Source: a phage
Strand: one strand, 5' to 3'
DNA length: 64,000 nucleotides
Sequence record: PZ154896.1
Numbering within the stretch: the first letter of the stretch is position 1; each line of letters starts with the position of its first letter. Position numbers and translations under genes: made by a program. The notes beneath the pieces are model-generated. The model was given only the letters and a program-made list of their open reading frames with translations. It made no database searches and was not told the DNA's origin. Below are positions 27,635 to 40,354 of the stretch, one piece after another.

Positions 27635-27943
27635 TCAATTAGAAAATAAATTTATCCAAGTTTTTTCTTTAATCAAAAATGGGTCGGAATTAAACGCCAT
27701 TAAACTTTGGGTGATTAATCCCTTAAATGGCCCATCAATAAATTCCATTTTGAAATGCGGAATACTAGTCATCAACCGTGCATTAGGAGCAGTACAAAGA
27801 ACCTGTTGACCTGCGAACGGACCTTTAGTCAAACGATATCGTTTAGGTTTAAAATGGTAAATCTCGTAATTTTCTACAAGAGCCCTTTTATTGCATACTG
27901 GGCTGTTATAACAATACTCAAAAACTTCAATAGTGGTCATCAT
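27635..27943 (-). CDS. hypothetical protein (vs.7 position)
   Basis: ORF trimmed to MMTTIEVF. Confidence 0.4.
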   Translation of the reverse strand: MMTTIEVFEYCYNSPVCNKRALVENYEIYHFKPKRYRLTKGPFAGQQVLCTAPNARLMTSIPHFKMEFIDGPFKGLITQSLMAFNSDPFLIKEKTWINLFSN

Positions 27944-28479
27944 TGCATTCCAATCACAAAAAATTGAGGACGAGCAATACCGCCGATGCAATATTTGCTT
28001 TTGCAGCAGTGCTGTACTGATTTAATATGGACATTGTAAATCTTATCCATATCAGGAGCTTTAATAGGCTCGTCAATTATATACAGAATACGAGAAAGCG
28101 TTAATCCACGGAATTTAGAACCTTCATTACCAATAAAACTACGGACAGAATCAGTAAATAAACGGAATCGAATATCATCGCTAGAATAACGAGAAAATTC
28201 TTTTTTAATGTTGCCAGCAGAAATTTTAGCATAAGCTGAAGTATTAGAAAGAACAATAACTGTTCCACCATCGAGCAGCCAATTAGCGGCAAAATTAGTT
28301 ACTGCAGTTGATTTACCAGATTGTCTGCCACCATCTAAACGAAGTGTACAGTACTGCTTGAGTACGTCTTCAAATGGTGGGGCATAACCGTTCTTACAAA
28401 TTTCTTCTACTCTAGCATCAGAATGGTGTGTAAAAGCATTCATCAGGGATAGATAAGGTCCAGTTAAAAATGTTCTCAT
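27940..28479 (-). CDS. small P-loop NTPase
   Basis: 179 aa; Walker A GGRQSGKST and Walker B ILYIIDEP. Confidence 0.5.
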   Translation of the reverse strand: MRTFLTGPYLSLMNAFTHHSDARVEEICKNGYAPPFEDVLKQYCTLRLDGGRQSGKSTAVTNFAANWLLDGGTVIVLSNTSAYAKISAGNIKKEFSRYSSDDIRFRLFTDSVRSFIGNEGSKFRGLTLSRILYIIDEPIKAPDMDKIYNVHIKSVQHCCKSKYCIGGIARPQFFVIGMQ

Positions 28480-28652
28480 TTAGTTTCTCTTAAGGTTGGG
28501 GCCATTCCGTGGCACATGTTAGGTCCTTCGACTCGCTATGTAAACCCATTACCGCACTTGGGCTCGACCTTATTACAGGTTGGAAAAGGTACATCACTTA
28601 GAAGACTCGAGGTTCATAAGGAGAGGTTGCGTTTCCCTTTATTAGGCAAGAA

Positions 28653-28982
28653 TTATACTCTAGGCTTTTGAGCTTGTTTGGTATTGGATTCCCATGCGGC
28701 TTTGGTAATTTTGTTAGCGGCATAACCAAAGGCATTAGATAGAACACCTTTAGAGTTGAATACATCCAATCCAATAAGTACACCTGCTGTGTTAAATTTA
28801 GGAGCAAAGTACGCATTAGTTTTAGAAAGAGCTTTTTTCAATTCAGGGTCTTGAACCAAGCCATCAAAAACGCCTTTACCATTTACTTTATATGTTACTT
28901 TGGGATTTTTAGCTTCTTCGATAGCAGCTTTCTGTTCCGCAGATAGTGTAACTTCAGTAATAAATTCTTGATAGGTTTTCAT
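28653..28982 (-). CDS. internal-protein-like capsid-targeted protein (IP family)
   Basis: starts MKTYQEFITE (capsid targeting sequence, IxE cleavage motif); 109 aa. Confidence 0.65.
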   Translation of the reverse strand: MKTYQEFITEVTLSAEQKAAIEEAKNPKVTYKVNGKGVFDGLVQDPELKKALSKTNAYFAPKFNTAGVLIGLDVFNSKGVLSNAFGYAANKITKAAWESNTKQAQKPRV

Positions 28983-29043
28983 TTTGTTCTCTCTAGGTTT
29001 AGACCATTCCATGGCCCATGAATTGTCCATTTTCCGTATTTAC

Positions 29044-29093
29044 CACTCCAAGTAATTATGAATATACTATCACAATTCTAGGAGAAAGTAAAC
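29044..29093 (-). promoter_or_regulatory. PeSL-like early promoter cassette
   Basis: rc: GTTTAC, CTCC/GGAG inverted repeat around TAGTAT. Confidence 0.5.
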
Positions 29094-29398: not shown

Positions 29399-29439
29399 AT
29401 GTTTCCTTTAAATGTAAATAGGCCTAAATATAGGCCTTA

Positions 29440-40199: not shown

Positions 40200-40276
<77 letters not shown>

Positions 40277-40279
40277 GAT

Positions 40280-40354
40280 TGGTGACCCTGGCTGGTTTCG
40301 ATCCAGCTACCTATCAGTTATGAGCTGACAGCTCTCCCATTGAGCTACAGGGCC
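40280..40354 (-). tRNA. tRNA-Met/Ile (anticodon CAT)
   Basis: hand-folded cloverleaf: acceptor GGCCCTG/CAGGGTC, D-arm GCTCAATGGGAGAGC, anticodon loop CTCATAA, encoded CCA; 3 nt from tRNA-Arg. Confidence 0.7.

Follow-up and report, generated by a model that had tools for sequence, protein, structure and literature searches.

Hepatitis delta virus (HDV)-like ribozymes, including those of the theta type, occur next to phage tRNAs. Among the virulent coliphages, T4 encodes two small, stable and structured RNAs in its tRNA cluster, species 1 and 2 or RNA C and RNA D, whose roles are unknown, and neither a riboswitch nor a trans-acting small RNA (sRNA) has been characterized in this phage (PMC3014915); a 2025 review of phage sRNAs does not mention T4 (PMC12197685). 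Conserved non-coding sequences of another kind have been described for the internal-protein (IP) locus of T4-like phages, where reiterated conserved blocks carry translation signals, flank IP genes, act as recombination joints and are credited with the recombinational shuffling of IP genes (PMC4122927, citing Repoila 1994; Arbiol 2010, PMC2839356). Here we describe a conserved RNA element and a duplicated leader from the phage sequence PZ154896.1, of which a stretch of 64,000 nucleotides, termed the window in the following, was analyzed. The element is situated in the 173-nt gap between the last IP gene and a gene related to vs.8 of T4 (28480-28652), on the minus strand, which carries all genes and all features dealt with here and is the sense strand for the flanking genes.

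From the 5′ strand of helix P1 to the 3′ strand of the pseudoknot PK1, the conserved RNA domain comprises ~107 nt (28534..28640), and we hold with high confidence that this part of the window encodes a real, conserved and structured non-coding RNA element. Covariance model R1 found a single match in the window (28531-28634, 55 bits, E = 1e-11), and neither this model nor a search for the core sequence revealed a second copy of the RNA element there. An earlier inspection of the letters alone, referred to here as the sequence-only reading, had pointed to the segment 28523-28652 as markedly GC-rich, devoid of a convincing open reading frame (ORF), equipped with short inverted repeats and possibly forming a small structured RNA. 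The segment is indeed GC-rich, with 45.4% compared to a window mean of 37.4% (sd 4.3), but only moderately so, as it falls into the top 4.2% of 130-nt windows and some nearby coding stretches are equally GC-rich. The inverted repeats cgactcg/cgagtc and gggctcgacc are present but do not correspond to conserved pairings. The lack of a convincing ORF extends to the relatives: stop codons interrupt every sense frame in all 13 homologues checked, none of the frames stays open throughout the set, and antisense frames over the element are stop-free only sporadically. The idea of a small structured RNA gained a firmer footing than the letters alone could give it, since covariation supports an RNA that is pseudoknotted and conserved across several phage families.

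The structural comparison is based on ~60 distinct copies collected from viral contigs, metagenomes and GenBank phages that sort into five flank types, two from the Tevenvirinae, two rV5-like and one N4-like/Phapecoctavirus. Helix P1 is formed by AAAGG (28636..28640) and CCUUU (28585..28589) and occurs elsewhere as AAAGC/GCUUU or AAAGA/UCUUU. Its pair 17-64 is GC in 16, CG in two and AU in one of 20 homologues, and its pair 5-39, compared across the T4-type and rV5-type classes, is AU in 11, GC in eight and CG in three cases. P1 closes a long bulged hairpin, P2 (28591..28627), with a 5′ strand at 28617-28627, a tip at 28601-28615 and a 3′ strand at 28591-28600. Within P2, pair 26-62 alternates between CG (13) and AU (7), and pair 35-54 is CG in 18 sequences, UG in one and UA in another one, the latter double change being that of the window itself; T4-type versions of P2 read CCUCAU/AUGAGG, CCUCAC/GUGAGG and CCUUAU/AUAAGG. 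The pseudoknot PK1 connects CGC (28629..28631), located in the internal loop that separates P1 from P2 on the 5′ side, with GCG (28534..28536), which directly follows the conserved UUUACAUA (28537-28544). In alignment A2 the two central pairs of PK1 are variable: columns 23-119 are CG in 13, AU in four and GC in three sequences, and columns 24-118 are GC in 12 and CG in seven. Other classes feature CUG/CAG, CCA/UGG, CCAG/CUGG, GUGAGGG/CCCUUAC or CGGA/UCCG at this place. Over five classes, PK1 is paired in 75 of 75 cells of a table registered by hand, with G-C, A-U, C-G or U-A as the middle pair.

Placed between the two PK1 strands is a three-way-junction core (28545..28584) that consists of the closing helix Pc (UCCA, 28581-28584, with UGGG, 28545-28548), the hairpin P3 (ACCU-GUAAUA-AGGU, 28567-28580), the junction strand CGA (28564-28566), the mini-hairpin P4 (GCC-CAA-G(U)GC, 28554-28563) and the junction strand GGUAA (28549-28553). 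The junction helices and the strands CGA and GGUAA are nearly invariant, in contrast to the freely varying loops of P3 and P4; in the main family, the variable positions of P4 are exactly its triloop and its single bulge. Pair 72-105 of Pc, which closes the junction, is UA in seven, UG in six, AU in four and CG in three sequences. An A-U to G-C double change affects P3 in phage CGG4-1 and in the second copy of the element in phage PEi20, and P4 reads GCC/GGC in the second copy of contig L062 vs. GUC/GAC in the second copy of PEi20. A different version of the core proposed by RNAalifold (ACC/GGU, GUA/UGC, GGU/GCC) was rejected in favor of hairpins P3 and P4, because the double change of CGG4-1 and PEi20 fits P3, GUAAUA varies in the manner of a loop and AAGCGCGG of T4 would yield an A.C mismatch under the RNAalifold version.

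On 20 window-type sequences the structure as a whole leaves 97.7% of the cells paired, compared to 27-44% in shifted-register controls, and ten pairs are changed on both sides compared to zero to two in the same controls, values that none of 500 shuffles reached. RNAalifold reported eight pairs with compensatory changes. Twenty G.U cells would turn into A.C mismatches on the opposite strand, and the sense strand of the RNA is therefore the gene-sense strand.

Several observations weigh against this structure or against the wider interpretation developed from it below. When folded by itself, a check suggested by the sequence-only reading, the window RNA yields a weaker structure than shuffled sequence (z = +2.24), so that the idea of a structured RNA would have failed on single-sequence evidence and the structure becomes visible only by comparison of relatives. 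PK1 of the window comprises just 3 bp, and Pc is imperfect in several classes, with six of 75 cells unpaired. The register of PK1 and Pc across classes was set by hand, and the contrast between matched and mismatched combinations is modest (4.3 vs. 3.1). A single alignment of P2 and PK1 over all classes was rejected, since MAFFT and the covariance model shift the classes against each other by one or two columns; the comparison of PK1 across classes is for this reason based on the manual register. Ascertainment makes the core look more invariant than it is, most loci having been fetched with core patterns. A promoter-like sequence, TTTACA-17-TAACAT, with a match of 9/12 overlaps the tail of the element in the window, for which reason some of the conservation in the tail could be that of a promoter. 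In EP32B, a natural Mosigvirus, P3 is broken and P1, P2 and PK1 are missing; this decayed copy implies that the full fold is not essential for viability. Finally, the strict synteny with vs.8 in the Tevenvirinae fits a role in cis equally well. In the EP32B sequence (Escherichia phage, L080 1185-1275), AGGU of P3 is replaced by AUGU and the junction core is fused straight to the leader hairpin before vs.8.

With regard to distribution, a 201-nt query matched 1071 phage records. Identity to the query is 78-87% in the T4-like genera of Klebsiella, Enterobacter and Salmonella phages, among them Jiaodavirus, Kanagawavirus, Karamvirus, Gelderlandvirus and Dhakavirus. Most of these T4-like matches span query positions ~28-180, i.e., exactly the intergenic element, and those of the Klebsiella and Enterobacter genera, with 80-87% identity, end at its edges. 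As the Vs.8 proteins of these genera are only 36-45% identical, the non-coding stretch is far better conserved than the gene that follows it. A 39-nt core, CCAACCUGUAAUAAGGUCGAGCCCAAGUGCGGUAAUGGG (28545-28583), is unique in the window and was retrieved from 1048 of 50,697 phage records, that of T4 included, with Tevenvirinae, Vequintavirinae, Stephanstirmvirinae and the N4-like Pylasvirus as core-bearing groups; in phages of other families it is 97-100% identical. The carriers amount to more than a thousand genomes of virulent enterobacterial phages. The core was not found in E. coli genomes. A survey of 185,579 bacterial and archaeal species, represented by one genome each, gave three core matches, none of them a true copy; these are taken as chance matches because they reside in GC-rich DNA and are not accompanied by the flanking motifs of the element. 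With no match in E. coli and chance matches in three species genomes, a host origin or a bacterial copy, for instance as a type III antitoxin beside its toxin, was dismissed. Judged by sequence comparison, the element is a conserved, horizontally mobile and pseudoknotted RNA domain, which passes from one phage family to another as a unit of evolution.

Existing annotation would suggest a different nature of the segment, either as 40 residues at the N-terminus of an extended Vs.8 protein or as a small ORF on one of the two strands. In the T4 record AF158101, vs.8 is annotated with 219 aa and a start 27 nt after denV, and the records of Klebsiella phage KaAlpha and of other phages lay "hypothetical protein" features over the element. 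In the window, however, a TAA stop immediately precedes the ATG of vs.8, the stops noted above leave no sense frame open in all homologues, the conserved start of the protein is MRTF/MK.., and substitutions follow compensatory pairing instead of changing third codon positions. A protein-coding function is thus scarcely credible. Since the TAA of the window directly precedes the conserved MRTF start and homologues contain stops in all frames, the long 219-aa vs.8 ORF of T4 is probably an annotation artefact. In that record (AF158101 64253-64912, corresponding to L077 454-1113), the first 40 residues (MRDSRQPVIRSSPSAVMGKYRNGQ...) are the translated RNA element and are not conserved as an ORF. 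The KaAlpha feature is KAALPHA_132, a "hypothetical protein" on the strand opposite to the RNA element (L068 1443-1571 (+)). The record of phage SA21RB labels the core "terminator," and the region is unannotated in most other listed records.

In T4-like phages the element is followed by a specific 3′ appendage, the leader of vs.8 (28480..28533), in which ANGGA, a spacer of 18 nt, a GCCA-nGGAA-UGGC hairpin, a weak Shine-Dalgarno sequence and the AUG of vs.8 succeed each other. In the window, these parts are represented by AAGGA (28524-28528; ANGGA is invariant in alignment A2), hairpin P6 (GCCA-CGGAA-UGGC, 28501-28513) and the weak Shine-Dalgarno sequence AAGAGAAA just before the start codon (28477-28479). 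Apart from two A.C cells, the pairs of P6 are the same throughout the 20 homologues and, because no P6 pair ever varies, the comparison is silent on its structure. An AUG within P6 (GGAAUGGCC, window 28477-28509) opens an upstream ORF of nine codons, AUGGCCCCAACCUUAAGAGAAACUAAAUGA, the UGA stop of which overlaps the AUG of vs.8 (AUGA). This arrangement is shared by CGG4-1, ZX14 and contig L050; T4 and contig L024 have the AUG in the reading frame of vs.8, whereas ACG replaces it in several phages. A conserved small peptide or upstream ORF was rejected, as frames differ between homologues and some are devoid of the AUG in the hairpin.

Wherever the fetched DNA of T4-like loci reached far enough, the element was located directly upstream of the vs.8 homologue, irrespective of whether the preceding gene was an IP gene, denV or another gene. 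The sole exception among these loci is L015, where an inserted IP gene separates the two. In Edwardsiella phage PEi20 (L078 1140-1365) and the related contig L062 (309-531), two tandem copies of the element are present between denV and vs.8, the second of which is diverged, with GCCU/AGGC as P3, a shortened junction and a GUC-CGC-GAC mini-hairpin. The firm association with vs.8 lends itself to an explanation as a cis-acting 5′-leader, a riboswitch-like aptamer or a protein-binding translational operator recognized, e.g., by host CsrA at two GGA motifs 18 nt apart; translation or stability of the vs.8 mRNA would then be set jointly by the folded domain and the ANGGA/nGGAA hairpin leader. This explanation agrees with the upstream stop codon abutting P1 in T4 and JS10-like phages, with the invariant ANGGA and the GGA in a hairpin loop, and with a third GGA at the Shine-Dalgarno sequence in several genera (present in KP1, L005, L011 and L024, absent from the window). 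Two GGA motifs 10-63 nt apart with one of them in a loop, as characteristic for CsrA-bound leaders, are found in the form of AAGGA and CGGAA of P6, and the leader of the IP gene is built alike. CsrA binds to the consensus CANGGANG; the loop nGGAA deviates from it by one extra base and the Shine-Dalgarno sequence of the window does not contain GGA. The similarity to CsrA/RsmA sites, which feature an ANGGA core and GGA in hairpin loops (PMC7652899), is a resemblance in sequence only, and our literature search did not find a link between CsrA and T4. The conserved fold with covariation is a property of riboswitches, but an expression platform and coherent downstream genes were not encountered: no terminator is predicted, no alternative pairing was found that would hide the Shine-Dalgarno sequence or the AUG. 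The invariant P6 does not have support from covariation. Together with the IP gene that separates the element from vs.8 in L015 and with the contexts outside of the T4-like phages that follow, these points make a dedicated vs.8 leader unlikely.

Outside of the Tevenvirinae, the element is followed by tRNAs, a promoter or other RNA cassettes, and a vs.8 homologue was not found in the loci of the rV5-like, Phapecoctavirus, N4-like and metagenomic groups. In these loci, the element resides on the strand of the tRNAs, within or beside the tRNA cluster. Specifically, it lies upstream of a promoter, one ORF and then tRNAs in the Vequintavirus phages V18 and slur12, between tRNA-Thr and tRNA-Gly in the Phapecoctavirus phiWec188 and after the tRNA array in the N4-like phage KpCHEMY26. 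The same position within or beside a tRNA cluster was noted for several metagenomic contigs. A stem of ~15 bp (GUGYUCUUAUCGUUGUG ... CACAAC-AGGUAAGAGCA) surrounds the RNA of the N4-like/Phapecoctavirus type, and for RNA and stem taken together the folding z is -3.9. In several contigs of this type (L034 6817-6833, 6932-6955 and 6995-7011; L071 3115-3346; L052; L063; L028), the element is bracketed by arms that occur as a repeated pair, GUGCUCUUAUCGUUGUG ... CACAAC..AGGUAAGAGCA, and a further 5′ arm opens a second cassette, the cargo of which (about L034 7012-7250) looks structured and has no match in Rfam. Such bracketing arms may be processing stems for several RNAs. The rV5-like loci contain a second conserved motif, CCCYUAGAGGGCUUGAWAGUGC (L004 2560-2620; L037 81-122 and 210-246), located upstream of the element; in one rV5-like subgroup the motif recurs on the downstream side, where a strong TTGACA-N17-TAAACT promoter immediately follows.

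As the same fold is found in unrelated transcript contexts, among tRNAs and sometimes within a processing-type stem, an autonomous, stable folded RNA that acts via its invariant junction and probably binds a host or phage factor is the simplest reading of its function, which we put forward tentatively, as a possibility that the comparison suggests. According to this proposal, the RNA would fold independently and would end up as a small stable RNA, either excised from the polycistronic early transcripts or tRNA precursors that contain it or left over from them. The pseudoknot would keep the invariant junction in shape, and the junction would bind a factor that enterobacterial hosts, or these phages, have in common. 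The action would proceed neither via base-pairing with a target nor via regulation specific to vs.8; antisense sites for the invariant 11-mers occur in the window at chance level, with no excess. The T4-like appendage, in turn, is seen as the translation-initiation leader of vs.8, and the second copy of this leader before an IP gene as a recombination joint of the hyperplastic IP locus instead of an independent regulatory invention. Taken in its entirety, i.e., conserved RNA, mode of action and leader, we consider this the probable explanation.

The very different transcript contexts would equally suit a self-cleaving ribozyme or RNA-processing module that works wherever it is transcribed, splitting the upstream message from the vs.8 mRNA in T4-like phages and aiding the maturation of tRNA-cluster transcripts elsewhere. 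Invariant unpaired junction nucleotides held by a pseudoknot and surrounded by variable peripheral stems and loops are a pattern typical for small ribozymes, and the strand order P1, PK1, P2, P2′, P1′, junction domain, PK1′ is that of the nested double pseudoknot of HDV-like ribozymes, theta ribozymes included. The match is one of topology only. Unlike in HDV ribozymes, the stretch that leads from the last hairpin to the strand closing the pseudoknot does not feature a conserved catalytic C: this stretch, equivalent to J4/2 of HDV, reads UUUACAUA, UAAAUA, UAU or CCUACA, it is not conserved, and the T4 type (UAAAUA) does not contain any C. In addition, P1.1 and a G.U pair at the base of P1 are missing, P1 starting with an A, in an A-U pair, in most sequences and with G-C in others. 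Conservation is concentrated where HDV ribozymes vary, namely in the domain that matches the dispensable P4 of HDV. None of the ribozyme families of Rfam 15 matched, even at E values up to 10, when short inputs from three classes were searched. A ribozyme or processing module is accordingly a distinctly unlikely alternative to the autonomous, factor-binding RNA.

Comparison with Rfam 15 (4227 models) at gathering thresholds identified only tRNAs, located elsewhere, in the window and 11 further loci, so that the family scan proposed in the sequence-only reading did not assign the element to any family. With E values up to 10, the window, N4-type and rV5-type versions produced only noise, i.e., matches to models for small nucleolar RNAs, microRNAs and long non-coding RNAs. 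A tRNA or pseudo-tRNA was rejected, as ARAGORN finds only tRNA-Arg and tRNA-Met at 40200-40354 and RF00005 misses the element in all classes. Resemblances to the CCCAAG loop of twister, the RfaH ops/JUMPstart element (GGCGGTAG), ToxI, transfer-messenger RNA, P12 of RNase P (GUGCGGUAAG) and the anticodon loop of tRNA-Tyr were dropped, as defining bases or colinearity fail. The element resembles RNA C and RNA D of T4 as a small structured RNA of virulent coliphages co-transcribed with tRNA genes, but it is not homologous to them: T4 carries it at a distance of 6 kb from them, before vs.8 and without an RNA annotation, and a relationship with rnaC/rnaD was rejected as R1 has no match in AF158101 69500-74500 at E values up to 1. 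An exact-string search of the literature for the core retrieved only unrelated primers, and the element was not found in the literature on T4 small RNAs, on CsrA with T4 or on vs.8, in a comparison that did not extend to the 10,006 candidate viral RNAs of PMC10690425. The RNA thus apparently has not been described and does not belong to a curated family; it apparently constitutes a new family among the orphan structured RNAs of virulent phages that carry tRNAs. More far-reaching, and rather doubtful in our view, is the notion that it is the founding member of a new functional class of RNAs. Such an RNA would be either a self-cleaving ribozyme of a new fold or an aptamer or decoy that binds a host protein or metabolite with high affinity. 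In that event, with the same reservation, it would have spread horizontally among at least four phage lineages and would be the first such RNA in T4, hidden beneath an over-extended vs.8 annotation.

The sequence-only reading had furthermore noted a motif of roughly 40 nt that is shared by the leaders of the vs.8-like gene and of the IP gene upstream and does not belong to the promoter cassettes. A common motif, CATGnGCCAnGGAATGGnC, indeed occurs exactly twice in the 64 kb, at 28500-28518 and 29002-29020, compared to a mean of 0.01 matches in shuffles, and alignment of the two leaders revealed that the similarity reaches beyond the proposed length, to ~60 nt with 65-68% identity. The second leader copy (28983..29044) begins with GGUAAAUAC (29044) and comprises GGUAAAUACGG, AUGGA (29026-29030), the hairpin GGCCA-UGGAA-UGGUC (29002-29016) and a Shine-Dalgarno sequence; it is not associated with the RNA core and is not matched by R1. 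The early-promoter-like cassette of the IP gene, GTTTAC ... TAGTATATT (29061..29093), with GGAG nearby (29046-29049), lies upstream of and separate from the shared leader, in line with the original observation. This cassette was read from the sequence on the basis of the T4/PST early-promoter consensus TTTACW-N17-TAYWAT (PMC4122927) and remains below the threshold of a consensus scan. The leader of the IP gene is 87% identical (55/63) to the vs.8 leader of T4 and 68% identical to the vs.8 leader of the window itself. In L015, the IP gene is flanked by two hairpin copies. The position of that gene and the identities of 87% vs. 68% mark the hairpin region as a recombination joint; at the level of sequence, this points to a copy of a vs.8 leader that reached the IP gene by recombination and to shuffling within the IP locus. 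The sequence-only reading had suggested a shared translational operator; the hairpin, with its CsrA-like GGA pattern, may in addition serve as one, but recombination is the better explanation for the duplication as such. In this respect, the duplicated leader is similar to the reiterated blocks and PeSL cassettes of the IP locus (Repoila 1994 via PMC4122927; Arbiol 2010, PMC2839356). It differs from PeSL, which combines a stem-loop, an early promoter, a Shine-Dalgarno sequence and a start codon, in that it lies downstream of the promoter, and the GC-rich core is a promoterless pseudoknotted RNA that also occurs in phage families without an IP locus.

Given a leader hairpin that is demonstrably a recombination joint, the whole segment could also be thought of as an element acting at the DNA level, either as a PeSL-type promoter/stem-loop cassette or as a hotspot of recombination or homing endonucleases for modular shuffling at the edge of the IP locus. 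The segment forms a fixed border of a hyperplastic locus, PeSL cassettes near indels have been described (PMC4122927), the promoter-like sequence TTTACA-17-TAACAT is contained in the tail of the element in the window, and phage families that are not related share the core at 97-100% identity. However, compensatory changes in five helices and the 20 strand-specific G.U pairs indicate selection on an RNA fold. In addition, the putative -10 region of the promoter-like match is not conserved (CCACGT in L011, CATGTG in CGG4-1), the T4 type does not have a -35 region, and the parts of PeSL are not present in the element in the order characteristic for PeSL. A DNA-level role would explain the duplication of the leader but not the core, and is very improbable as an account of the element.

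The window stems from a T4-like Mosigvirus and is 99% identical to Shigella phage phi25-307 (Mosigvirus) across the studied stretch. In the order of transcription, nudE, the lysozyme gene e, an IP gene, denV and four further IP genes, each of which begins with MKTYQEFI or MKMYQEFI, precede the 173-nt gap and the vs.8-like gene. The last IP gene occupies 28653-28982. In the RefSeq record of phi25-307 its product is given with 125 aa and a start at the AUG within the AUGGAC leader motif (window 29028-29030; L001 3754-4131). The true start is probably at 28982, where the conserved N-terminus MKTYQEFI begins, and the leader is probably non-coding. The vs.8-like gene (27940..28479) appears in the ORF list with a P-loop protein of 179 aa, matching phrog_1488 at 8.6e-78. 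Weak matches of this protein to the ATPase of the terminase large subunit (Pfam Terminase_6N, phrog_2) were also noted. Between two of the IP genes, at 29420-29437, a perfect 7-bp hairpin, AGGCCUAUAUUUAGGCCU, is followed by a U-rich tract and is terminator-like on both strands; the same hairpin is found upstream of the RNA element in contigs L018 and L020.

The duplication of the leader is the ordinary part of these observations and belongs to the known mosaicism of the IP locus. For annotation, the analysis implies that the start given for T4 vs.8 is probably wrong, as are several of the "hypothetical protein" features placed on the RNA. T4 Vs.8, described as terminase-ATPase-like, is reported to be toxic upon co-expression with the Avs2 immune sensor (2026 paper, PMC13601566), which makes the control of vs.8 expression a matter of current interest. 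Coordinates in T4, a pairing model and designs for compensatory mutants follow from the alignment and render the element a testable candidate. Its fold is far better conserved than the surrounding proteins and has been exchanged between Straboviridae, Vequintavirinae, Stephanstirmvirinae and Schitoviridae; conservation and exchange among phages, without a true bacterial copy, imply a function that matters in lytic infection of enterobacteria.

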